A stretch of 64,000 nt of DNA from an uncultured Azospirillaceae bacterium (GTDB lineage Bacteria > Pseudomonadota > Alphaproteobacteria > Rickettsiales > UBA3002), in the NCBI GenBank assembly GCA_964352815.1, contig CAYGTO010000005.1, forward strand, positions 7,904 to 71,903, given 5' to 3'. The notes under the pieces are model-generated. The model was given only the letters and a program-made list of their open reading frames with translations, had not been told where the DNA came from and did no database searches. Positions 1,168-57,052 of the stretch are shown piece by piece. A program made the translations under genes and the position numbers. Each line of letters starts with the position of its first letter. The first letter of the stretch is position 1.

Positions 1168-1965
1168 TTATCCCGTTCCCAATAATGATACCGTAGCATC
1201 ATATATATTGCGCTGCAACAAAAGTGATTCGCCGACCAAGAAGCAATGAATATCATGTGCTTGAATGGCTTTGACATCATCATGTGTTTTGATGCCACTT
1301 TCACATACTATTACGTAATCAGCGGGAATTCCCTGCGCGATACGGGGGGTGTTCTCGAGGTTCACTTCAAGGGTTTTAAGGTTGCGATTATTGACGCCAA
1401 TAAGACGAGAGCTCAGATGCGTTAGCGCGCGGTCGCGCTCTTCTTCATCATGGACCTCGATGAGTACGTCCATCCCAAGCTCATGCGTGGCGGCTTCGAG
1501 TTCTTTTGCCTGCGCATCGGAGAGCGCCGCCATGATGATCAGAATACAATCCGCGCCGATAGCGCGTGATTCTATAATCTGATAGGAATCGACCATGAAG
1601 TCTTTACGAAGTACGGGGAGGGTGCATGCCTCTCGTGCCGTAATCAAATCGCCATCATTCCCTTGAAAATAAGGCGCGTCTGTGAGGACGGAAAGACAGC
1701 CTACTCCCGCGCGTTCATATTCTTTTGCTATTGCCGCTGGGTCAAAAGCTTCACGAATGAGCCCCTTGCTTGGCGATGCTTTCTTTATCTCACTGATAAG
1801 CCCGATTTGAGCTGTGTCCGCTTTTGTTTTGAGGGCTTTCATAAAGCCCCGGGTTTCACTTTGCGTCTTGATACGCTCTTCTAGGTCGCTAAGAGGGACT
1901 GCTTGTTTTTGCTTAACCACATATTCACGTTTTACCTCACAAATTTCATCGAGTTTATCAGACAT
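1168..1965 (-). CDS. trpC: indole-3-glycerol phosphate synthase
   Basis: 265 aa with EIKKASPSKG and the conserved LSVLTD..FQG motifs. Last gene of the trpE-G-D-C run. Confidence 0.95.
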   Translation of the reverse strand: MSDKLDEICEVKREYVVKQKQAVPLSDLEERIKTQSETRGFMKALKTKADTAQIGLISEIKKASPSKGLIREAFDPAAIAKEYERAGVGCLSVLTDAPYFQGNDGDLITAREACTLPVLRKDFMVDSYQIIESRAIGADCILIIMAALSDAQAKELEAATHELGMDVLIEVHDEEERDRALTHLSSRLIGVNNRNLKTLEVNLENTPRIAQGIPADYVIVCESGIKTHDDVKAIQAHDIHCFLVGESLLLQRNIYDATVSLLGTG

Positions 1966-1966
1966 A

Positions 1967-2986
1967 TCAGCTCTGGTTACTCCAATGAATCAGCTCTTTC
2001 AGAGTATTCCGCGCACGGCCGCTATCAATAGCGAGCTTGGCCTCGCGTACCCCGTCTTTCAAGGTGTCGGCGGTGCCCGCAATGATCAGGGATGCGGCAC
2101 TGTTGAGTAACACAGCATCACGGTAGGCACCTTGTTCGCCATAGAGCAGCGCTTTAATCGCTTCTGCATTGGTTTGCGCGTCACCACCCTGAATATCTTT
2201 AAGCTGTGCTCGCGCGAGTCCGGCATCTTCAGGCGTCACGCTGAAGGTTTTGATGCGCCCTTTGTTGAGCGAAGCAACATAGGATTGGCCGGTGATGGTG
2301 AGCTCGTCAAGCCCGTCCTCGCCATGCACGACCCAGGCATGTTCCATATTGAGCAACTTTAAGACACGGACAATCGAATCGATGAGTGATTTGTCGTATA
2401 CGCCGAGAAGCTGGCGCTGCGTCCGCGCCGGATTAATAAGTGGGCCTAGGACGTTAAAGATAGTGCGTGTTTTTAGTTTCTTGCGAATGGGCGCAACGTG
2501 TTTCATAGCATCATGAAATTGCGTTGCCATCATGAAACAAATGTTTGCTTTTTTAAGGCACTGCTCAAGCACATGCTTTTCCGCCATAATATTAATACCC
2601 AACGCTTCGAGAACATCAGCAGACCCTGACTTTGACGAGACAGAGCGATTACCGTGCTTAGCAACGGGAATGCCGCACGCGGCCACGACGAGCGCAGAGG
2701 CAGTGGAAATATTATACGTCCCTTTTGCATCGCCTCCCGTGCCACATGTGTCGATTGCATCTGCGGGTGCTTTAATCGGTTTGGCTAGTTTTCGGAGTAC
2801 TTCGACAGCGCCGGTGATTTCATCAGCTGTTTCGCCTTTTTTCTTCAATGCGAGAAGGAATCCTTCAATTTCATCATCATTCGCATCACCCTTCATAATG
2901 CGTGTGAAGGCGCGCTTGCTCTCAGCGCGTGTAAGCGAATTACCCGCGTCAATCTTATCAATGAGAGGGGTTAATGAAGTGGCCAT
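1967..2986 (-). CDS. trpD: anthranilate phosphoribosyltransferase
   Basis: 339 aa with the DTCGTGGD motif and NRSVSSKSGSADVLEALG. Confidence 0.95.
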   Translation of the reverse strand: MATSLTPLIDKIDAGNSLTRAESKRAFTRIMKGDANDDEIEGFLLALKKKGETADEITGAVEVLRKLAKPIKAPADAIDTCGTGGDAKGTYNISTASALVVAACGIPVAKHGNRSVSSKSGSADVLEALGINIMAEKHVLEQCLKKANICFMMATQFHDAMKHVAPIRKKLKTRTIFNVLGPLINPARTQRQLLGVYDKSLIDSIVRVLKLLNMEHAWVVHGEDGLDELTITGQSYVASLNKGRIKTFSVTPEDAGLARAQLKDIQGGDAQTNAEAIKALLYGEQGAYRDAVLLNSAASLIIAGTADTLKDGVREAKLAIDSGRARNTLKELIHWSNQS

Positions 2987-2993
2987 AGCTGCT

Positions 2994-3578
2994 TTATATC
3001 AGTTCGAGGAAATTTCTCAACACATCATGCCCATACTGCGAGGCAATACTTTCCGGGTGAAATTGCACGCCGTGCAGCGGGTGTTTCTTGTGCGCGATTC
3101 CCATGATGGTGCCATCTTCAATTTCAGAAGTGATCTCGAAACAGTCTGGCAGCGATTCACGTTCGACAATCAAAGAATGATAGCGCGTTGCTTCAAACGG
3201 GCTACTCAGCCCTTTAAAGACGGACTTGCTTGTATGGGTAATCATACTCGTTTTGCCGTGCATCGGTTTTTTTGCACGGATGATTTTTCCGCCATAAGCC
3301 TGTGCGATGGATTGATGTCCCAAACACACGCCAAGCATGGGAATGGATGGGCCGAGTTTTGCGACGAGCTCGAGGCAAATACCCGCTTCATCAGGTGTTG
3401 CCGGGCCTGGCGAAATGATAATGCCATCAACCGTTCCTGCCGCTTTCTTAGCTTCAATATCACTCACGCTGACCGCATCATTGCGCACCACTTCGATCGG
3501 TGAACCCAGTTCTTGCACGTAATGTGATAGATTATAGGTGAAGCTATCGTAATTATCGATTAGGAGAATCTGTTTCAT
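2994..3578 (-). CDS. trpG: anthranilate synthase component II (glutamine amidotransferase)
   Basis: 194 aa class-I GATase with GVCLGHQ and HPES. Its start overlaps the trpE stop by 4 nt. Confidence 0.9.
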   Translation of the reverse strand: MKQILLIDNYDSFTYNLSHYVQELGSPIEVVRNDAVSVSDIEAKKAAGTVDGIIISPGPATPDEAGICLELVAKLGPSIPMLGVCLGHQSIAQAYGGKIIRAKKPMHGKTSMITHTSKSVFKGLSSPFEATRYHSLIVERESLPDCFEITSEIEDGTIMGIAHKKHPLHGVQFHPESIASQYGHDVLRNFLELI

Positions 3579-25797: not shown

Positions 25798-28700
25798 ATG
25801 ATCCTTCGACTTGTGAAATGGTTTTCTGCCGCTGCGTTTACCCTTATACTTTTGCTAGGGGCGGTAACGGCGTGGCTATTATATGACGAAGAAACTCTGA
25901 ATCAGATCGCCCCCAATATGATTACCTCGGCGCTTCAGGGTGACGTGTACAGCGCAGAGTTTGAACGGCTTGAAGTTACGAATGTGGATTGGGATGGCAG
26001 CATGGCGGTGTCTTTCTCCTCATTATCAATGATAAAAAACGGTACCTTCCGTATCGCCACCATTCCCAATCTCAACCTTACGCTTAATTGGCATGCGCTT
26101 TTGTTGGGGTATGTTTCGATTGAACGCGTGATGGTCGAGAACCCATATTTTATGCTCACGCGGCGTGTGAATGGAGAAACCTGGTTTAGCACAAAGAATG
26201 AACAAGAAGAAGTGGTGAGCCATGTTCCGATCGCGATGGTGCGTAAGATGGAGCAAGTGCTTCAGAAAAATATTGATGAAGAACAAGAAAATGCTCCATC
26301 TGTAGAAGAGAAACCTGGTGTGAGTAATGAAACACTGATCAGGGCAGAAGAGCTGTTCGGTTTTCTTTCTTCACTACCAGATGAGCTGACATTGAGAGGT
26401 TTCCATTTTGAGCTCGTAGATGAAATTGAAAAGCGTAGCGTGCATTGGAACGATGTGACTATCGCACTGCAAGAAGAGGATGGTGTACTCAAGGGGAATG
26501 GGCGCGCATCATTTGAACTCCCAACGCAAACGGCCTTGGTTAATGTGATTGCAGAGGAGGTGAGTTCAGGGCGTGTTGATGTGTCACTTGAGTTTTCGGA
26601 GCTGGATATCGCATCGGTTTGTGCGGTTAAGCCCAAACAATGCGGTGAACTTGCAGCGCTATCATTCCCTGTTTCTGGAAAGGTTGGGGTTGAAGTCTCG
26701 GCTGAGAATGGCCTAGAGCTCGTCGATTTTGCGTTTAAAGGTGAGCAAACCGCGGTCACTCATCCGGAGTGGTTTACGGCACCCGCGATGCTTGAGCATT
26801 ATCTGCTTGAGGGGGAATATGCGGCGCTAGAAAATGACCTCAAAATCAAACAGTTGCGCATGGAATTACCGAAAGCTACTATCGAAGGGGTAGGGCATGC
26901 CCAGTATCTCGACGCAGACCCTACAATTGAAGCAAGCCTGAGCGGTGCAAATATCGATATTGCTGAACTTAATACGTACTGGCCGACGCATATTGCTGTT
27001 GATGCTCGTAACTGGGTAACGGACCATTTGCTTGCAGGAACAGTCACGAAAGCGTCGGTGAAAGTAGACATTGATCGCGCAGATTGGCAGAAAGAAATCT
27101 TCCCGACAGAAGCGTTATTCGCTGAGCTTGATGTCCAAGATGCAACACTTTTATATTTGCCTAATTATCCCAAAGTTGAACTACTCGACGCGAGTGTGAT
27201 GTTTACAGCGAAGGAGATGGCGGTCGTGATTGCGGATGGAAAAACGCTGAAAGATTCTAAAGTGCTTGAGGGGACGGTCCGTATTCCTGACTTTTCGGTG
27301 AATGGCATGCCGATGGAGATCGATCTCATGGTTGATACATCCGCAGCGGACGTCGCGCGTTTTATTAATCCGCCGCGCTACACCTTCGCTAAGAAGCTAA
27401 AGTTCAATCCAAAGACGATCAAGGGGCGTGCTACGGGGGAGATTACGCTGCGTTTTAATACGAGCACGCCTGTTCCTGGAGGGGGCGAAGAGACGACTCA
27501 AGAAAATGATGATGCAATGGGCGACGTTTATTATGCAATCAACGCGCAGCTTCACAAGGTTGGCCAGAAAGGCATTCAAGGCGTTTGGGATTTTGCGAAT
27601 GTAGACGCCGAAGTTGTTGCAGACGCCAAGGGCGTGGAGATGAAAGGGATTGGCCTGATTCATGGTGAAAAATCAAAATTCAGTATCGAGAGTGTCGAAG
27701 GAAAACCAACACATTACACCTATAGCGGTTCACTGCCTAAAGCCAAGCTCTCTAAATTTGGGTTCCCTGAAATTGATGCGCTGACAGGCTGGGTATCGCT
27801 CGATGCAGATGTCACGGAATATGCTTCGAAGCAAGTCACAAAGCTCAACGTAGGTCTGACCAATGCTACGGTTGATCTTGGTGCGCTTGGTATGAAAGAG
27901 TCGGGGAAAAAGGCAAACATGTCGTTCGTCGCGCACGCACCCCACAAGAGTAATGAGACAGAGTTGAAGCAGTTTCGCTATAGCGGTGAGGGTTTCATGA
28001 TTAAAGGAAATGTAGTGACTGATGGAGCGCTTGGGATTCGCCGAGCGACGCTTCCCAGTTTGAAGTTTAACCAAACCGAACTCGCGCTCGATTATCATGT
28101 TAATTCGGGTGTGCATCATATCACGGTTGAAGGGCCAATGTTAAGCCTACGAGAAGAAGAAACAGAGGAAAATATAGATTCCGGGTTTTCATTAAGCACC
28201 CTGTCGCCCTTTGTGGCTATGGTTGATATTGAAGCGGTCAGCTTTGGTAAGGGCAAGCAATTGAGTAATGTGAAAGGCAATTTACATTGCCATGGAGAAC
28301 GCGGCCGATGTATGAGTGGTGAAGTGACGGCCTTTCTACCCAGTGGTGAAGGTATTAATATGGCGATTGGTAGAGAAGGCGGGCAGCGAGGGTTTTCGCT
28401 CAGTACAAATGATGCGGCGGGGCTTATGAAAGCCACCGATATCCACGATGATGTTACGGGTGGCACGCTTGATATCAAAGGGACCTACGATGATAGTAAA
28501 CCGAATAGCCCGCTCAATGGCCGTGTTCTTGCGACAGATTTTACGCTTAGAAACGCACCGATCTTGGGTAAACTGTTGACGCTAGGCTCATTCACGGGGC
28601 TGCTTGATACATTGCAAGGGAAAGGCATTAAGTTTGAGAAATTCTCGAGCCATTTCCGTTTAGCTGATGATACGCTTACCCTTCAAGAGGGGCGTGTTAA

Positions 28701-29097
28701 AGGGGATGCAATCGGTGCGACTATTGAAGGGGATATTCGAATTGATCAGAATATACTGAATTTGAAAGGGACTCTATTCCCTGCTTACTTCTTGAACACG
28801 TTGATCAGTAATGTACCAATTTTGGGTGAGCTAATTGCGGGGGGTGAAGGTGAAGGAATTGTCGGGATTCGTTATAGTGTTAAAGGAAATGCTAGCGATC
28901 CTAAAGTAGGGGTAAATCCTCTCTCGGCATTAACGCCAGGCTTCACGCGTAATTTCTTTGATGCTTTTGAGAGCGGCAGTGGGGCGGCAGAAGAGCCAGT
29001 AAAAGAGGCGCCGGAAGAGCGCGGAACAATTCTGAACCAAGAAGAAGCATTGCCACCCCTCGAGAAACAAGATGTGGAAGTCGTGCCGGCGCTTTAG
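25798..29097 (+). CDS. large AsmA-like / YhdP-like membrane protein (DUF3971-type)
   Basis: 1099 aa with an N-terminal TM anchor (FSAAAFTLILLLGAVTAWLL), a long beta-rich body and a C-terminal AsmA-like region (GIVGIRYSVKGNASDPKVGVNPLSALTPG). Confidence 0.65.
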   Translation: MILRLVKWFSAAAFTLILLLGAVTAWLLYDEETLNQIAPNMITSALQGDVYSAEFERLEVTNVDWDGSMAVSFSSLSMIKNGTFRIATIPNLNLTLNWHALLLGYVSIERVMVENPYFMLTRRVNGETWFSTKNEQEEVVSHVPIAMVRKMEQVLQKNIDEEQENAPSVEEKPGVSNETLIRAEELFGFLSSLPDELTLRGFHFELVDEIEKRSVHWNDVTIALQEEDGVLKGNGRASFELPTQTALVNVIAEEVSSGRVDVSLEFSELDIASVCAVKPKQCGELAALSFPVSGKVGVEVSAENGLELVDFAFKGEQTAVTHPEWFTAPAMLEHYLLEGEYAALENDLKIKQLRMELPKATIEGVGHAQYLDADPTIEASLSGANIDIAELNTYWPTHIAVDARNWVTDHLLAGTVTKASVKVDIDRADWQKEIFPTEALFAELDVQDATLLYLPNYPKVELLDASVMFTAKEMAVVIADGKTLKDSKVLEGTVRIPDFSVNGMPMEIDLMVDTSAADVARFINPPRYTFAKKLKFNPKTIKGRATGEITLRFNTSTPVPGGGEETTQENDDAMGDVYYAINAQLHKVGQKGIQGVWDFANVDAEVVADAKGVEMKGIGLIHGEKSKFSIESVEGKPTHYTYSGSLPKAKLSKFGFPEIDALTGWVSLDADVTEYASKQVTKLNVGLTNATVDLGALGMKESGKKANMSFVAHAPHKSNETELKQFRYSGEGFMIKGNVVTDGALGIRRATLPSLKFNQTELALDYHVNSGVHHITVEGPMLSLREEETEENIDSGFSLSTLSPFVAMVDIEAVSFGKGKQLSNVKGNLHCHGERGRCMSGEVTAFLPSGEGINMAIGREGGQRGFSLSTNDAAGLMKATDIHDDVTGGTLDIKGTYDDSKPNSPLNGRVLATDFTLRNAPILGKLLTLGSFTGLLDTLQGKGIKFEKFSSHFRLADDTLTLQEGRVKGDAIGATIEGDIRIDQNILNLKGTLFPAYFLNTLISNVPILGELIAGGEGEGIVGIRYSVKGNASDPKVGVNPLSALTPGFTRNFFDAFESGSGAAEEPVKEAPEERGTILNQEEALPPLEKQDVEVVPAL

Positions 29098-37277: not shown

Positions 37278-38388
37278 ATGAAAGCCGAAATCAAAACCTT
37301 GTCGGATGATATTCAGCAAAGCCTCGCCTTGCTGAGGAGGTATCTTTGACTGGGAGGTGAGCCTCACAAAGCTCGACGAACTAAACGCCAAGGCGGAAGA
37401 CCCTGATCTTTGGAATGATCAGGCGAAAGCGCAATCGATATTGAAAGAACGCACGGCGCTTGAAACGATGATCAACGGCGTGCGCAGCCTCGAATCGGAA
37501 CATGAGGACGCCATTGCGCTTGCGGAATTGGGTGAAGAAGAGGGAGATCAAGACTCGGTTAATGAGGCTGAGGCGATACTCCAGAAGACACTTGAAACGT
37601 CCAAGCGCCTCGAAATTGAATCACTCCTAGCCGGGGAAGCGGATGCGAATAACTGTTTTGTGGAATTTCATCCCGGTGCGGGCGGAACGGAGAGCCATGA
37701 TTGGTGCAGTATGCTTTACCGGATGGTGCTGCGCTGGGCTGAGCGTCGTGGGTTTAAAACAGAAATTGTCGAAGAACAGTCGGGCGAAGAGGCGGGTATT
37801 AAATCGGCCACCATCAAGATTGTTGGCCATAATGCCTATGGCTGGACGAAGACCGAATCGGGAACGCACCGCTTAGTGCGCATCTCGCCGTTCGATTCTG
37901 CGTCGCGCCGCCATACCAGCTTTGCAAGTATCTGGGTATATCCCGAGGTAGATGATAATATCGATATCGATATCGATGAATCTCAGGTGCGGGTGGACAC
38001 CTATCGGGCGTCGGGCGCGGGTGGTCAGCATGTGAACAAAACCGATTCTGCGGTGCGATTGACCCATGAGCCAACCGGCATTGTCGTGCAATGTCAGAAT
38101 TCACGCTCGCAGCATGCGAACCGGGCCGAAGCGTGGAAGATGCTGCGCGCGCGGCTCTACGAGAGAGAGCTTCAGCTACGCGAAGATGCGGCGGCGGCGG
38201 AGCAGGCGAGCAAAGGCGATAATGCTTGGGGCCATCAGATTCGCTCCTATGTGCTGCACCCGTATCAGATGGTGAAGGATTTGCGCACGGGGGTTGAGAC
38301 GGGGAACACACAAGCCACGCTCGATGGTGATTTGGACCCGTTTATCTTTGCCGCGCTCGCCGATCGGGTTGGTGGGAAGGAGGGTTAG
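37278..38388 (+). CDS. prfB: peptide chain release factor 2, made by programmed +1 frameshift: join(37278..37346,37348..38388)
   Basis: Frame 0 reads ATG 37278 ... AGG AGG TAT CTT TGA (stop at 37347-37349). The +1 frame continues GAC TGG GAG GTG AGC... into the 343-aa ORF, which carries SPF (RISPFDS) and GGQ (SGAGGQHVNKTDSAVR). Confidence 0.95.
37335..37350 (+). promoter_or_regulatory. prfB autoregulatory +1 frameshift site
   Basis: AGGAGG-tat-CTT-TGA-C: an internal SD-like element 3 nt before the slippery CTT and an in-frame UGA followed by C. This is the canonical arrangement. Confidence 0.9.
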
Positions 38389-38783
38389 GGTGTCGGCCCT
38401 TGCCGTGCGATGATCGCTTCCGCGTCTTTTTGGATTCGATCTATACCAGAGCGGTCATAATCATCTGTTTCTTTAGGGATTTTGACGCAAAAATTGAAAT
38501 GGCCCATTTGAGCAATGCCTAAAGGGTTTTTATCAATTAATTTTCGATTGATTCCATAATGCGTGCATAGCTCTTCTTTTAACCCGGTTACTTCATGTGA
38601 TAGTGGTCTGTACGTTCGTGAACTTTTAGGAACGAAGCCTATGTAAAGTGTAATATATCCAGCATTGTTATGTTGTTTGATTGTTTGTGATTGCAGAGCC
38701 GTGAAGTCATGTTGTGCCATGAAATCAATCAGTAAATTTTTCAATCTACCTTTTGATTCTGGCGCATGTACTTTGATTGCCAT
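38385..38783 (-). CDS. hypothetical protein (132 aa, AT-rich orphan)
   Basis: An ORF between prfB and mnmA whose 3' end overlaps the prfB stop by 4 nt. No recognisable motif. Confidence 0.4.
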   Translation of the reverse strand: MAIKVHAPESKGRLKNLLIDFMAQHDFTALQSQTIKQHNNAGYITLYIGFVPKSSRTYRPLSHEVTGLKEELCTHYGINRKLIDKNPLGIAQMGHFNFCVKIPKETDDYDRSGIDRIQKDAEAIIARQGPTP

Positions 38784-38840: not shown

Positions 38841-39995
38841 ATGGAAAACCAACAGAAACAACGTATTGTTGTCGCCATGTCGGGCGGAGTGGATAGCTCT
38901 GTCACCGCCGCATTGCTGCATGAGCAAGGCCATGAGGTGATTGGCATCACGCTTCAGCTTTATGACCACGGCGCGGCGGTGGGTAAGAAGGGCGCCTGTT
39001 GCGCGGGGCAAGATATTCATGACGCAGCACGCGTATGTGAAACATTAGGAGTTCCGCATTACGTATTGAATTACCAGGATAAGTTTAAAGAATCAGTGAT
39101 GGATGATTTCGTCGAGACTTATCTTGCGGGAGCGACTCCGATTCCGTGTGTGCGCTGTAATCAGACGGTGAAATTCAAAGATTTGCTTCAAACTGCGCGT
39201 GATCTTGGCGCCGAGTGTATGGCGACAGGGCATTACATTCAGCGGGTTGTCGGTGACGATGGGCGTGCGCAGCTTCATCGCGGCGCGGATCATAGTAAAG
39301 ATCAAAGCTATTTCCTGTTCGCAACCACACAAGAACAGCTTGATTTTCTACGTTTCCCGCTCGGCGGTATGAGCAAAGACGAAACCCGGGCACTTGCGAC
39401 GAAATATGGGCTGTCGGTAGCAGATAAGCCGGATTCTCAGGATATTTGTTTCGTGCCCACGGGCGGTTATGCGAAAGTGATCGAAAAGCTGCACCCTGGC
39501 GCGAGTGAGCCAGGCGAGATCATCCATCTGGACGGCACGCGGCTAGGGATTCATCAAGGGATTATCCATTACACGGTGGGCCAGCGCCGTGGTTTGAACA
39601 TTGGCGGCACGATGGACCCGCTCTATGTGGTGCGCGTGGATGCAGAGAAAAAACAAGTGATTGTGGGGCCCAAAGAGGCGCTGGCGGTGGAATCCTTCGT
39701 GATCCAGGAACTGAACTGGCTGGGCGATGTCCCTTTAAATGGTCGGAGCGATGAAGTGATGGTTAAGATGCGTTCGATGCAAAAGCCTGTTCCGGCCTAT
39801 ATCGAGCCCATGGAAAACGGCAGTGCGCGCGTGATTTTGAAAACACCCCAGGAAGGAACCGCGCCTGGTCAGGCATGCGTGTTTTATGATGGGGAAAGGC
39901 TTTTGGGTGGCGGCTGGATTATTGCGCAGCGTCAGCAGGTTTCTCTTCTTCCTCGTCAAGAAGAATCTCTTCACCAATCGAGCGGCGCCGCCTGA
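38841..39995 (+). CDS. mnmA: tRNA 2-thiouridine(34) synthase
   Basis: PP-loop AMSGGVDSS, with the catalytic Cys region PIPCVRCN and DQSYFL. Confidence 0.95.
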
Positions 39996-40494
39996 TTTCA
40001 GGTCCCCATTCTTCCATTAAATCTTTTTGTTGATCACGCAATCGTGTGACATAGGTCTTGTTTACGAATTCGATGAAAAACGTGGTGGCAAGGGGAGCGG
40101 CGGTAATTAAAAGCCATCCAAGTAGCGCCGAGCCATAAACAATGACCCATGTGTTGATGCTCGCCATCATGTTCATCACCATGGCGGGTGAGTTGCCTTG
40201 TAATATCAGATCAATCAGCAGAGGAATGAGCCCGGCTAAATTACACGCAAAGACTGTTTTGAATGGGCTTCGCGTACTCGACATCTCAATGAAATATGAA
40301 ATAATCGAAGGCATAAGGGCGATCAGAATAAAAATATACGTTATTTTGAGCCAAAAGATCAGCACCAAAGAGGCTGTCATGAACAAAAAGAAGTGTTTTC
40401 GGTTATGGCGCCTCTTACGTCTCAAATATGCTTTGCGCCGCTCCGCAATATCGTTCGTACGAGTTGGATCAACCTGATCTTGAAGTGAAGCCAT
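39919..40494 (-). CDS. hypothetical 4-TM membrane protein, operon partner of the pseudokinase
   Basis: 191 aa with a basic N-terminus ([16 protein letters not shown]), four hydrophobic segments and an acidic C-terminus ([14 protein letters not shown]). It begins 3 nt after the stop of the upstream gene. Its 3' end overlaps mnmA by 77 nt. Confidence 0.5.
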
Positions 40495-40497
40495 ATG

Positions 40498-42618
40498 CTA
40501 TACCCAATATTGATATAAAAGTAACATGGTAGTGATCAGCATCACCACATACCCCATACTCACCGAAAGCCGGTCACCGCTTCGCCGAGCCATCCGGTTT
40601 GCTGTCTCTTTACGCTTGAGGTGAGCGATTGTCATATCCGTTCGCTCATAGACATCTCCTGCACGCTTAAACAGTTTTTCGTCCCTATCAATGACTTCCG
40701 GGTCAAACACAACATTCAACACATTCTGAACTTTGCCGGTTTGTGCTGCAAGCAGAAGCTGTTTACGCATGCGCCGGCGCGTAGTACGGTTGTGGATGTT
40801 ATTCATATATTCTGAGATACGAATGGCGACCCAAGTGCTTAAACCAATAAGCGAGAGCTTCTTGAAGCTGTTCTGCGCCATTGCGATGATGTTGATGACG
40901 ACCAACTCTTCCGGCGCGATTTGACCGGTTGAGAAAGACAATTTCTTCACGCGCTGTTCTTTTACAATACCAAGCCGTGACGCCAAGAACGCTGCGAGTT
41001 CACGATCATCGAAAGATGTGTTCATGGCCTTTTCTTTTGAAATCATATCTAATGTGCGAAGTGCATCTTTGAGATCATCGATCGAATATTCAACGATAAT
41101 AGGGCTTTGGCATGGCAAGGAGCGGTTTAGCTCATAGATAATACGCTCCACACCAAACCCGTAATTATCGATTGTCAGATATTTGCGAATATTCGGAATA
41201 TTCCACAACATTGCTTGCGTGTGTGTATTCATACGTAGAGGGTTTAGATCAAGAATATATTGTGGGAGGTTGTTCCAAATCATGTCGATTAAAGCGTCGA
41301 CCTTTTTCATGTCGCCTTCACGAAAATATTCGAGCATTCCGGTGCCAATTCCATCGATATGCACGGCCATTTCTTTCGCGCGCATCGGACCAAAATTATC
41401 TAACGTCGCAAGGACGCGCGTGACCATATCATGCCGTGCACGGTCTGTGTCTTCTGCATTATTGATGATTTGTGCAATAGGCGCGGCTAGATGTTTAACA
41501 TCTGGCCCGCTTTCGATCCATCGATCCATCCGTGTGTTACTTAGCTCACGGATCGCACTGGTCCACTTCTCATGCATTGCGTTGGCAACGGCTTTAAGGT
41601 TGAAGTATTCCTGCTCATTATAGAGGAACGGACGGCTTGTATCACGCGGTGGATTTGGGTAAATAAGGTTAAACCGTTTTCCGTCAAGCCATGAGGCAAG
41701 CTGTTCTAATCCCCAACGATCTCTCGGGTCGTCTACTAGCGTGCCACGAAAAAAATCTTCTAGAGTGTTGGTCATCTCGCGGCTTCCCAGGTAAAGAGCA
41801 TATGAGCCTTTCACAAGAATCTGATCTGCTAGAAGTTTTTTGGGGATTTTCTCGATCTTCTCTGTACCAAAGAGCATCGCATACATCACCATACCAAGTG
41901 CATAGACATCAGTTTTCTCAGTAGGCTCGCCACGTGCACATGGATCAGCGAGCATGCGCTCAACCGGTTCGTAGCAATCAATTTGCGAATAGCCGCTGCG
42001 CTCGCCCATACATTCACCAAGCACGACATTACGTCCTAAGAAAATATTGCCTGGATTGATTCGCCCATGTGAAACGCCTTTCTCTTTCATCGCAGTAAGG
42101 TACTCGATGATTGGGGTGAGCACCTGATAGACGATTTGCCGCTCATGGAACCGCTGCCCTTTAGAGAGTAATTCTCTGAGGCGTGTTTTAGGGGGCTGCT
42201 CAAACACAAAAACGCGCCGGTAATCATTATCGATACTAATTTTTGTACGACCGTAATCAAGCGATCGAATTCCGTTTGGATGATTAAATCGCAAGAGTGC
42301 TTCAGTCGCTGTGGCACGGTGCGCATATTGATGGTCAAGCACAAGCGCATAGTACCGCACATCAGGATGCGCTTTTGATGTTGCTTCATAGGCGCGTGTG
42401 AATTTTGTTTCTAAGTGAGGGAGCGGTTTATCAACATTAATACGGTACTGATGATGGAGCACGTCTGTTGGTGAAGTGGAAGGAGCATAAGAACTACGAT
42501 ATTCCTCAAGAATTTGCTGAAGTTTGACGATCGTGCTTTCCTCGAGCTGGCGCGTTTCCGCATCAGCTTTCGGATACATCCCATCTAACCCCTGACTAGC
42601 CATGACTGGCCCTCCCAA
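40498..42618 (-). CDS. protein-kinase-like (probable pseudokinase) protein with a large C-terminal domain and a C-terminal TM anchor
   Basis: Eukaryotic-like kinase subdomains are recognisable: HGRINPGN in place of HRDxKPxN, GEC in place of DFG, YEPVE in place of APE, DVYALGMVMYAMLFG (subdomain IX) and DPRDRW (XI). C-terminal hydrophobic segment YVVMLITTMLLLYQYWV. Confidence 0.6.
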   Translation of the reverse strand: MGGPVMASQGLDGMYPKADAETRQLEESTIVKLQQILEEYRSSYAPSTSPTDVLHHQYRINVDKPLPHLETKFTRAYEATSKAHPDVRYYALVLDHQYAHRATATEALLRFNHPNGIRSLDYGRTKISIDNDYRRVFVFEQPPKTRLRELLSKGQRFHERQIVYQVLTPIIEYLTAMKEKGVSHGRINPGNIFLGRNVVLGECMGERSGYSQIDCYEPVERMLADPCARGEPTEKTDVYALGMVMYAMLFGTEKIEKIPKKLLADQILVKGSYALYLGSREMTNTLEDFFRGTLVDDPRDRWGLEQLASWLDGKRFNLIYPNPPRDTSRPFLYNEQEYFNLKAVANAMHEKWTSAIRELSNTRMDRWIESGPDVKHLAAPIAQIINNAEDTDRARHDMVTRVLATLDNFGPMRAKEMAVHIDGIGTGMLEYFREGDMKKVDALIDMIWNNLPQYILDLNPLRMNTHTQAMLWNIPNIRKYLTIDNYGFGVERIIYELNRSLPCQSPIIVEYSIDDLKDALRTLDMISKEKAMNTSFDDRELAAFLASRLGIVKEQRVKKLSFSTGQIAPEELVVINIIAMAQNSFKKLSLIGLSTWVAIRISEYMNNIHNRTTRRRMRKQLLLAAQTGKVQNVLNVVFDPEVIDRDEKLFKRAGDVYERTDMTIAHLKRKETANRMARRSGDRLSVSMGYVVMLITTMLLLYQYWV

Positions 42619-42840
42619 TGCCTCATCTGATTTAAAAAGCTAAGTTTCTCTTTATACTAGCCTTTTTTTTGTTTTTTCTCAAGTGGACAGCTTCAGCTAT
42701 AAAGCGAGAATAGCTCTCCATACTGTTATACGCAAAATGTCGTGGATAGGTGACGCAACCATGGATTCATGGGTTGCTAACCATCAGAAAATCGGTATGT
42801 TAGGGGCCTCTTAAATATATAAACATAACTGGAGATTTAT

Positions 42841-47183: not shown

Positions 47184-48296
47184 ATGCCTGAGAATAGCAC
47201 ACTCAAACCGATGCAGACGACAAGCGACCTGTTCGCTCGCATGCGTGCGCAATGTGTGGATGCACTGTCCTCTTGTATTGGCGGAGTACATAAGCGCTGC
47301 CAACCTGATTTTGAAACAAAGATAAGTGAGACGTATTATGAAAGGCTTATGAGAAGCCGTGTAAAACTGTATCTAGGAGCAGACCGGTTTGATCGTATTA
47401 AAGCACTAGAAGTAGAGCTACATAGCCGACAACCTGGTCTCTTTTTAGACGCTAGTAAATGCGTTGAAGATTTTATTGGCGGCGGAGGGAAAGACGAAGC
47501 TGCGACTAAGCTTAAGAGCGAATTAGCACAAAAGCTTTACAGAGAACTTAGAATTAACGAAGTGTTTGAGGGGCTTGATCTTTATTTTCAGGGAAGCACT
47601 CCTCTAGTGGAAAGATTTTCAGCCCAAATGGTGGATCACTTTGGCGTAATTGTCGATATGCAAGTAGCGCAAATTCTCGAGGCTTGCCTAGAGAAAGCGC
47701 TGCTGGATATTTCTGGTGGAAAAAAAGCAGATAAAATAACGATGAGTCTTCCAGAATTTATTCGTAATATGCCTCTTTCTCCTAAGGTATTCGATGATTT
47801 TTGGTCAGAGAAGAACTGGGCAGTCGTGAGTGATATGGAATTTGCGCGTCATGGAAGCACAAGAGCTTATGTTGAGGATTTTCTTTACCCGATTCAGCAA
47901 AATGTAAAAGAGCATTCGAAGGCCGTGCATGCGGATTTTGCAAAGTTTATGGGAAAGCATGGGCTTAGTGAATCATTGATTGCGATACAAAATGAAGCAT
48001 CACGCTTACTTGATTTGTCGCACCATGTCATGCGAAACGTGACGGTTGATCTTATTGGAACTTTCACGAAATCGAACTGGTCAGGGCGTGCGGGGAAGGT
48101 TGGGTTGATGGCTGCTGGTGGTGTATTGATGTCGGATGGAACACGAGGAGCGCTTAACGCCTTTGAGGTAAAAGAAGACGCGGAAGAATACAAATATGTT
48201 CACCGTAACTGGATGGAAACCGGCTTGCGCGCGATTGAAGCAGCTGCGGGATTAGGCGTGGCGTATTTCGGCGCGACAACGCGCTTTGGCCGCTAA
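47184..48296 (+). CDS. hypothetical protein (370 aa orphan)
   Basis: An ORF with no recognisable motif. The C-terminal third has G/A-rich hydrophobic stretches (GKVGLMAAGGVLM, AIEAAAGLGVAYFGA). Confidence 0.5.
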   Translation: MPENSTLKPMQTTSDLFARMRAQCVDALSSCIGGVHKRCQPDFETKISETYYERLMRSRVKLYLGADRFDRIKALEVELHSRQPGLFLDASKCVEDFIGGGGKDEAATKLKSELAQKLYRELRINEVFEGLDLYFQGSTPLVERFSAQMVDHFGVIVDMQVAQILEACLEKALLDISGGKKADKITMSLPEFIRNMPLSPKVFDDFWSEKNWAVVSDMEFARHGSTRAYVEDFLYPIQQNVKEHSKAVHADFAKFMGKHGLSESLIAIQNEASRLLDLSHHVMRNVTVDLIGTFTKSNWSGRAGKVGLMAAGGVLMSDGTRGALNAFEVKEDAEEYKYVHRNWMETGLRAIEAAAGLGVAYFGATTRFGR

Positions 48297-55833: not shown

Positions 55834-55990
55834 ATTGTTTGAGGCGATTCTCAGATATACTGAAAGCTGGCTGCTTTTTTCATCATGACCGTTCGGATAC
55901 CCGCGTGGACCGAACCGATGGAGAAAGCTCCGATTCCTACCCGCAAGCGTGGTGCTTGTGTGGGGGATACAACTGTAGGAGACTACTGAG

Positions 55991-57052
55991 ATGAGTAACA
56001 CCATCATCGGTTCCGACGGAGGGGAAACCCTCAACGGAACCAACGGCGACGACGTCATCTTCGGCAACGGGGGCAATGATGTCCTCCGCGGCAACGAAGG
56101 TGATGACACCCTCTGGGGTGGGCTTGGCGTCGACACCCTCTTCGGAGGTGCCGGTGCCGACATTCTTGACGGTGGCTTCCAGACGGGAAGCACCGTTCAC
56201 GTCAACGAGTTCGACGTGGACGGCGACCTCCTGTGCGGGGTCGACCGGACGATCATCTATGTGATCAACGGTGTCGCCCACATGGCCGAGTTCGGTTTCG
56301 AAGACGCCAACGGCAATGGTGTTTGGCTTCTCGACGACGGTGACGGTGTCACCGACTTCGAGGCCCGCCTCGTGCGGGAAACGCCCGATCACGAGCTGTT
56401 CGGCGTTTTCGCCGTCGAGCAGCCGGTCGACCCCGACCCGGTGGAAACGCCGGGCACGGGCGGCGACCCGGACTTTATCGATATCGACATCATCGGCGAC
56501 GGTGATAACGACATCGATATCGACATCGACGGACCGGTGATCGACATCGACATCGACGGCCCCGTGGACGGGGACGTTGACATCGACATCGACATCGACA
56601 ATGGCGATGGGCACGATACGCCCTCTGGTGACGACGAGATCGATTCGCTGGAATCGGCCTGGGTCGAGCTCCTCTACGAGGCGGGTCTGAACCGTCCTGC
56701 GCAGGGCGCCGGCAAGGCGTTCTGGCTCGATGTCTTCGAAAGCTTCGAGGACGCCGAGGAAGGGTCCAACTTCCTCGCCTACCACTTCCTGTACTCTCTG
56801 GAGTTTCAGGAGAATGTGGGAGACGTGGAGACGATGGACTCGTTCCACTTCGTCGGTGCGCTCTACGAGAACGTCCTCGACCGCGAGGCCAAGGCCGGTG
56901 GCCTGGACTTCTGGGCCGGGGTCGATGAGCGTGGCGATTCGAGCGTAGAGACGCGGGTCGAGATCCTGGAGGCCTTCGCGGGAAGCCAGGAGAACATCGC
57001 TCAAGCCGACTTGGCTGGGGAGTATACCTCAGGCGACTTCATCTGGATCTGA
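55991..57052 (+). CDS. RTX (hemolysin-type calcium-binding) repeat protein with a DUF4214-like C-terminal region
   Basis: Five N-terminal nonapeptides (GTNGDDVIF GNGGNDVLR GNEGDDTLW GGLGVDTLF GGAGADILD), an acidic DIDIDID core and a C-terminal LLYEAGLNRPAQGAGKAFWLD...ALYENVLDREAKAGGLDFW segment like DUF4214. AGGAG SD. G+C-rich. Confidence 0.8.
   Translation: MSNTIIGSDGGETLNGTNGDDVIFGNGGNDVLRGNEGDDTLWGGLGVDTLFGGAGADILDGGFQTGSTVHVNEFDVDGDLLCGVDRTIIYVINGVAHMAEFGFEDANGNGVWLLDDGDGVTDFEARLVRETPDHELFGVFAVEQPVDPDPVETPGTGGDPDFIDIDIIGDGDNDIDIDIDGPVIDIDIDGPVDGDVDIDIDIDNGDGHDTPSGDDEIDSLESAWVELLYEAGLNRPAQGAGKAFWLDVFESFEDAEEGSNFLAYHFLYSLEFQENVGDVETMDSFHFVGALYENVLDREAKAGGLDFWAGVDERGDSSVETRVEILEAFAGSQENIAQADLAGEYTSGDFIWI

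Follow-up and report, generated by a model that had tools for sequence, protein, structure and literature searches.

In a 64,000-nt stretch of DNA from an uncultured alphaproteobacterium (assembly GCA_964352815.1, contig CAYGTO010000005.1; this whole stretch is called the window here), two adjacent minus-strand genes encode a degenerate protein kinase with a membrane anchor at its C-terminus and a small polytopic membrane protein, referred to below as the pseudokinase and its partner. Both open reading frames (ORFs) were confirmed, at 40498..42618 (706 aa, TTG start) and 39919..40494 (191 aa), and the junction between them reads TAG-CAT-ATG; with this gap of 3 nt the two genes form an operon. 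An earlier interpretation made from the letters alone (the sequence-only reading) had described the same two ORFs and the same spacing, and the motifs that it quoted, HGRINPGN, LGEC, YEPVE, DVYALGMVMYAMLFG, DPRDRW and the terminal YVVMLITTMLLLYQYWV, are all found in the translation. Its length of 706 aa is that of the ORF; the start of the protein, however, is likely to be ATG 42603, which gives 701 aa, because the Shine-Dalgarno sequence GGGAGGG precedes this codon and because the database copy P0001, identical to the window pseudokinase, is 701 aa long. Residue numbers in this text refer to the 701-aa protein, and the coordinates of the features are collected in Table 1.

Table 1. Features of the gene pair, with positions in the window.
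Feature	Position	Strand	Basis
Partner gene, 191 aa	39919..40494	-	ORF, alignment, hydropathy
Tail-anchored pseudokinase gene, 701 aa, stop codon included	40498..42603	-	mechanical ORF from TTG 42618
C-terminal transmembrane tail anchor, residues 678-697, 4 residues beyond	40513..40572	-	hydropathy, alignment
All-α C-domain with two small β-hairpins, residues ~311-664	40612..41673	-	structure models, alignment, searches
Hanks-type kinase-like domain, residues ~48-310	41674..42462	-	Pfam, PDB phmmer, Foldseek, alignment
N-terminal helix ahead of the kinase-like domain, residues 15-34	42502..42561	-	secondary structure of the AlphaFold2 model
Shine-Dalgarno sequence GGGAGGG, 6 nt 5' of ATG 42603	42610..42616	-	read off the sequence
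Divergent intergenic region common to the pair and ahcY, presumed promoter site	42604..42840		inferred

The N-terminal third of the pseudokinase is a true Hanks-type kinase fold. The Pfam model Pkinase (PF00069) matches the window protein with 36.9 bits, for a gathering score of 31.7, and also matches 35 of 41 relatives. In a phmmer search against PDB sequences the protein was aligned with STK16 (E 3e-6), with HRDLKPTN standing over HGRINPGN. An AlphaFold2 model built from 10 homologues reached a predicted local distance difference test score (pLDDT) of 86.6 and a predicted template-modelling score (pTM) of 0.81, and its residues ~48-310 were superposed by Foldseek on the kinase domains of PknB, PknA and Aurora, with template-modelling (TM) scores of 0.7-0.79 (target-relative) and E ~4e-9. 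Profile and structure searches had been named beforehand as a possible refutation of the kinase fold seen by eye; they found that fold, in which HGRINPGN takes the place of HRDxKPxN, LGEC that of DFG and YEPVE that of APE, while DVYALG corresponds to subdomain IX and DRW to subdomain XI.

To see how far the catalytic residues are kept, key columns were tallied in an alignment of the 41 relatives, which are 19-45% identical to the window protein. The structural His of the HRD motif (H179) is a His in 41/41. The column of the HRD catalytic Asp (181), by comparison, holds R in 15 sequences, N in 7, S in 6, A in 4, G in 3, E in 2 and C in 2, besides other residues, and an Asp in none; the window protein reads HGR. 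At the β3 Lys of VAIK (column 89) we find C, L or V, within a segment YALVL or YALIC, and PLPxLD(S) occupies the Gly-rich loop columns 60-66, where GxGxxG would be expected, so that the absence of both elements noted in the sequence-only reading extends to the relatives. The αC Glu column (101) is unconserved, and the residues E212, D232 and R296, which are structural to the fold, are invariant or nearly so. By the usual sequence criteria the protein is a pseudokinase throughout its family, and it is predicted to be catalytically inactive.

The kinase fold is followed by a helical region of about 370 residues, the C-domain, whose best-conserved motifs are GFGxERxLYxLNPxLPCxSP and DRHIAAF and which gave a pLDDT of 79.8 when modelled separately. 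Pfam had no match to it in any of 10 members, its profile found nothing below E 0.1 among PDB sequences, and a Foldseek search with the model against PDB and BFVD returned nothing below E 0.5; when segments of the domain were compared with each other by hhalign, no internal repeats were detected. As judged from these profile and model comparisons, the C-domain has no recognisable relative outside its own family, which agrees with its earlier description as unrecognised sequence. Hydropathy analysis shows a single hydrophobic segment in the whole protein, residues 678-697 of 701; this is the C-terminal anchor that had been proposed, and an invariant G676 stands just ahead of it.

In the partner, hydrophobic stretches were found by hydropathy at residues 33-72 (with room for two helices), 78-100 and 113-144. 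The N-terminus is polybasic, with 11 K/R in 34 residues, and the C-terminal tail is acidic. Hydropathy and composition thus match the polybasic N-terminus, four transmembrane segments and acidic tail of the sequence-only reading; the tail is not conserved and is missing from most homologues. The conserved features are LP(S/T), T..A.NLAG, DP, MY.AA..G and a helix ending in EEWG. By the positive-inside rule the protein would have about four transmembrane helices with both termini in the cytoplasm, and the EEWG helix would be cytoplasmic too; with this topology all soluble parts of both proteins would lie in the cytoplasm. No relative of the partner was found in Pfam, NCBIfam, PADLOC or PDB. Weak matches to Yip1, DUF401 and M50B, each in 1 of 17 members, were judged to be noise. 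The partner gene overlaps the convergent mnmA (38841..39995) by 77 nt at its 3' end (39919-39995), as had been correctly noted, and the overlap corresponds to the unconserved C-terminal tails of both products; the mnmA product has 384 aa in the window versus 362-364 aa in two related loci, L010 and L045.

To estimate the size of the family, an exhaustive hidden Markov model (HMM) search with the C-domain profile was run against representatives of 50%-identity clusters and gave 1,542 cluster representatives at E<=1e-3, of which 997 pass the stricter limit of E<=1e-30. In nearly all cases the length is 650-750 aa and the C-domain occupies residues ~300-700, and almost all matches come from metagenome assemblies. 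A word-indexed search had suggested a tiny family of 10-14 relatives; this count, overturned by the exhaustive search, was an artefact of sensitivity, because kinase words had saturated the candidate list. The few named matches are called 'serine/threonine protein kinase', a label that is probably wrong for this family, and belong to metagenome-assembled genomes (MAGs) of Alphaproteobacteria, Pseudomonadota or Rickettsiales. The partner profile found 102 clusters; these come from Micavibrio sp., 'Bdellovibrionales' and alphaproteobacterial MAGs, and all bear the name 'hypothetical protein'. Micavibrio is an epibiotic predator and is phylogenetically alphaproteobacterial. NCBI taxonomy places it in Bdellovibrionales/Pseudobdellovibrionaceae, and for this reason loci L017, L018 and L021 carry the labels 'Bdellovibrionales' or 'Pseudobdellovibrionaceae'. 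A literature search found no publication describing the pseudokinase/partner family, and literature, Pfam and solved structures hold nothing that covers either the C-domain or the partner, in keeping with the remark of the sequence-only reading that this was not a system it could name.

The co-conservation of the two genes was assessed in 24 distinct loci, to which a metagenome locus scan with a narrow search pattern contributed only 3; two of the loci (L019 and L032) end at a contig edge, leaving 22 that could be assessed. In 19 of these 22 a partner homologue lies directly downstream of the pseudokinase gene on the same strand, and in L020 it lies 3.4 kb upstream on the opposite strand. Conversely, when the search started from partner proteins, the most divergent of them among these, a pseudokinase gene was found immediately upstream in all three cases. 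The two genes are co-conserved, so that the refuting condition named in the sequence-only reading, a lack of co-conservation in other genomes, does not hold. Pairwise distances of the pseudokinase correlate with those of the partner (r=0.94) and with those of purA (r=0.92). We rejected the first value as a sign of co-evolution between the two proteins: it is unspecific, because purA gives nearly the same correlation, and what it shows is vertical descent. Since the distances of the pair track those of purA, both genes follow the organismal phylogeny. These results show that the pair are vertically inherited core genes of many uncultured Alphaproteobacteria.

The surroundings of the pair in the window are of the housekeeping kind. 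On one side lie tyrS, rne, amiC, PBP1A, prfB, a small ORF and mnmA, on the other ahcY, a PAS histidine kinase gene, purU, gltA, nhaA, mutY and thiC; no compositional anomaly and no mobile-element or island signature was found at the locus. Downstream of the pair, mnmA-prfB-PBP1A recurs in the window, L010, L014 and L045, and PBP1A, AmiC and mnmA flank the pair in both the window and L045. Upstream, purA is found in 12 of the 24 loci. Other neighbours are secA directly upstream (L031), lepB directly downstream (L017), lepB-rnc-era, recR and a GNAT acetyltransferase gene in particular loci, and ftsH and glmM upstream in several.

A different kind of neighbour is the Tad/Flp pilus locus, which in L007, L009, L018, L021, L022 and L043 follows the pair immediately and in the same orientation; the order in L043 is, in full, tadE, tadE, tadG, flp, cpaA, cpaB, cpaC, cpaD, cpaE, cpaF. 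Linkage is partial in L015, with cpaB/C 2.3 kb downstream of the pair, and in L029, with genes for a secretin-N-domain protein and a tetratricopeptide repeat (TPR) protein nearby. The Tad pilus is the only functionally coherent neighbour that recurs. In a neighbour-joining tree, those of the directly Tad-linked loci that it includes fall into a single clade, and L015 lies across the root, so that Tad linkage occurs in both deep clades. Neither protein of the pair matches a Tad family of Pfam or NCBIfam.

Two further candidate links were set aside. Partner switching through STAS and response-regulator-SpoIIE proteins was rejected, as such genes adjoin the pair in L010 and L020 only, and a TPR neighbour (possibly TadD-like) is confined to one close clade. 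In L010 (3772-5260) and L020 (9490-10665) genes for a STAS protein and/or a response-regulator-SpoIIE (PP2C) phosphatase immediately follow the pair, which sets partner-switching components beside a pseudokinase; two loci are too few to interpret. In L029, a 530-aa protein is encoded between purA and the pseudokinase gene (1653-3242), with a paralogue 8 kb away on that contig (12944-14779; 42% identity over 182 aa) near a weak TraW-like match.

Upstream of the pair, the intergenic region common to it and ahcY holds one weak sigma-70-like match only (TTGAGA-17-TAGTAT, 42682-42654), and the pair's promoter presumably sits there. Promoter and terminator scans gave matches no better than shuffled expectation, the Rfam scan found zero RNA families across the whole window, and CtrA boxes (TTAA-N7-TTAA) occur upstream of the pair in 1 of 22 loci.

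Elsewhere in the window some observations were made in passing. The small ORF between prfB and mnmA (38385-38783, minus strand, 132 aa) has no Pfam match; its place is filled by a 129-aa gene in L010 and a 264-aa gene in L045, and by position alone it may be a conserved small protein. The prfB gene itself (RF2; 37279-38388, plus strand) has the classical programmed +1 frameshift, a known phenomenon: the short frame from ATG 37279 ends in AGGAGG TAT CTT TGA C (37335-37350), after it the +1 frame carries the main ORF as far as 38388, and of this gene only the downstream part appears among the mechanical ORFs. On the plus strand there are also a 1,099-aa YhdP-like protein of a putative intermembrane lipid-transport family (25798-29097), a 370-aa ORF without a Pfam match downstream of purU (47184-48296), and a protein with RTX calcium-binding repeats and DUF4214 (55991-57052) in the GC-richest stretch (56-58 kb, GC 0.60); the long ORF on the strand opposite the last (55937-57004) is probably an artefact of the RTX repeats.

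Taking into consideration the degenerate kinase fold, the predicted membrane topology and the conserved pairing, we hypothesize that the pair is a non-catalytic inner-membrane scaffold complex, possibly serving an envelope machine, a reading drawn by analogy to which we assign a probability of about 0.5. The pseudokinase would be cytoplasmic throughout save for its tail anchor; it would assemble with the partner in the inner membrane, with contact through the tail anchor and/or through docking of the C-domain on the partner, and the complex would recruit cytoplasmic clients to the envelope machine, as EssB/YukC does. EssB is a membrane pseudokinase that works as a non-catalytic scaffold, and its cytoplasmic pseudokinase domain binds the FHA domains of the EssC ATPase (PMC11217815). 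The best candidate for the machine would be the Tad/Flp pilus, a link that is speculative and that we regard as doubtful. A role of the pair as the cytoplasmic-membrane platform of this pilus in Micavibrio-like (predatory or host-associated) Alphaproteobacteria is plausible, because Tad is the sole coherent neighbour and because Tad assembly in Caulobacter begins from the lineage-specific membrane and cytoplasmic scaffolds PodJ-PleC-CpaE and ZitP-CpaM (PMC12637624); still, we would put this narrower proposal among the unlikely ones. The outer cytoplasmic ring of the Tad machine is still unassigned (PMC12637624).

Several observations speak against this scaffold hypothesis, and some of them concern the cleft. 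The DFG-Asp column (197, on the probable alignment) is E in 28 and D in 11 of the 41 relatives and thus acidic in 39, the Mg-binding Asn (N186) is kept in 30, and residue 70, the basic residue of β2, is K or R in 29; these retained cleft residues may leave room for the binding of a ligand or nucleotide or for atypical catalysis. While the sequence-only reading had taken the catalytic positions as substituted, this stands for the HRD Asp; it is not clear-cut for the DFG position. The acidic residue of G-E-C comes after a small residue, as in aDFG, and it probably aligns with the DFG Asp, although the HMMER alignment places C198 there instead. Pseudokinase folds can be active enzymes, as SelO, SidJ, WNK and CASK illustrate. 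With R96 kept in 38 of the relatives and H179 in all of them, the conservation round the cleft is strong and suggests that the cleft is in use: the protein might be an atypical enzyme or a nucleotide-binding switch whose cleft binds nucleotide and metal, the pair signalling or modifying a substrate by means of relocated residues (as in WNK) or of altered chemistry (AMPylation as by SelO, glutamylation as by SidJ). We hold this to be improbable, considering that the catalytic-base column is variable and acidic only as the E of 2/41, that the Gly-rich loop, the β3 Lys and a conserved αC Glu are all wanting, and that 12 of the 41 lack the basic residue 70, for which the window protein has an R. 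Moreover, a check against known active atypical families matched none at threshold, be it SelO, SidJ, Kdo or others; Pfam, NCBIfam and PADLOC gave only generic kinase-domain matches far under the family cut-offs.

The remaining points against the hypothesis come from the loci. L016, L028 and L030 have no partner within the sequence examined; Tad adjacency is seen in 6-8 of 22 loci, mostly in a single clade, and is no stronger than the linkage to purA; and no Tad gene lies in the 64-kb window. Since the purA linkage has no plausible functional tie and is an example of gene order conserved without one, the Tad adjacency may be inherited gene order as well. The pair could then be a core factor of the envelope, of polarity or of membrane-protein biogenesis with no tie to pili, for instance by serving cell-wall synthesis, division or protein insertion as an adaptor anchored in the membrane. 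Loci outside the Micavibrio-like clade do have housekeeping genes as neighbours, often ones related to the envelope (PBP1A, AmiC, secA, lepB, ftsH, glmM); however, no single envelope function recurs among them, and as they differ between clades they give no specific lead, so that we also rate this explanation as rather unlikely. A role in anti-phage defence or in a toxin-like system, with the pair as sensor or effector module, is very improbable; the defence sensor had been suggested in the sequence-only reading too. Such a role was brought to mind by weak PADLOC and NCBIfam matches to defence kinases (PD-T4-6, 43 bits; MADS6, 33.4 bits) and by toxin-antitoxin pairs near the locus in L001, L003 and L010, but the matches span the generic kinase domain only, that to MADS6 falls far below its cut-off of 460, and the partner has no PADLOC match. 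Furthermore, the locus has housekeeping surroundings without any mobile-element or island signature, its neighbours change from one locus to the next, unlike those of defence modules, which keep fixed partners as they move, and its divergence tracks that of purA, as expected of a vertically inherited core gene. Sub-threshold matches, housekeeping context and vertical inheritance together largely refute a defence role. Among the roles put forward in the sequence-only reading, the scaffold, polarity or envelope factor therefore gives the best account of the pair, while the defence sensor is abandoned.

To our knowledge, there are only a few examples of a pseudokinase serving as a scaffold at the membrane in bacteria, for instance EssB/YukC and the MviN domain. 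A membrane-anchored pseudokinase scaffold is thus of an already known kind, and what is novel here is the C-domain and the dedicated partner: the architecture combines a degenerate kinase fold with a C-domain for which no structural relative was detected, and adds a tail anchor and a polytopic partner of its own. About 1,500 clusters at 50% identity are now defined for a family that databases label 'serine/threonine protein kinase' or 'hypothetical protein', and the pair belongs to the core genes of a radiation of Alphaproteobacteria that has received little study, with Micavibrio among its members. Finding out what the pair does would put right a faulty annotation, enlarge the set of pseudokinase architectures and perhaps uncover an organiser that has so far been missed, whether of Tad pili or of some other envelope machine in these bacteria. 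If the pair were the Tad platform, Gram-negative bacteria would have in it an equivalent of the EssB scaffold that takes over the function of polar organisers of the PodJ/ZitP type, and the outer cytoplasmic density of Tad machines, still unassigned, might be explained by it.

Among known systems, the mycobacterial MviN/MurJ carries a degenerate Hanks-type domain on a membrane protein that serves as a docking platform in envelope biogenesis. There, however, the pseudokinase is fused to a polytopic flippase, whereas the polytopic protein described here is a small one that stands apart from the pseudokinase and is unrelated to the flippase, and the genes near the pair include neither a flippase nor an FHA partner. 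The Caulobacter systems PodJ-PleC-CpaE and ZitP-CpaM are lineage-specific, membrane-anchored and mostly cytoplasmic platforms that must be in place for Tad assembly to begin (PMC12637624), and the pair stands at the head of the tad locus in Micavibrio-like genomes; the two share no sequence or domain similarity, and the one link is gene neighbourhood in 6-8 of the 22 loci. Receptor kinases of the PknB type give the best structural match (TM scores of 0.72-0.79) and likewise carry a cytoplasmic kinase domain at the N-terminus, ahead of the membrane anchor, but the family described here is without the catalytic Asp, the β3 Lys and the Gly-rich loop, and with ~4 residues past the transmembrane helix it has no extracellular sensor domain, PASTA or other. 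EssB/YukC, of Gram-positive type VIIb secretion, resembles the pseudokinase in its N-terminal cytoplasmic degenerate kinase fold and single transmembrane helix. The pseudokinase is nonetheless not a member of that family, because profile match, topology and type VII secretion neighbours all fail to agree: Pfam YukC has no match at E<=0.01 in the window protein or the 41 relatives, where only generic kinase models were found, and no EssC or WXG100 gene stands beside the pair in the 24 annotated loci. In EssB the transmembrane helix is central and leads to an extracellular domain, while here it forms the last 20 residues; the 370-residue cytoplasmic helical domain between kinase fold and membrane, the dedicated partner with four transmembrane segments and the alphaproteobacterial hosts set the pair further apart. 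For the way in which the pair may work, EssB/YukC is all the same the best analogy.

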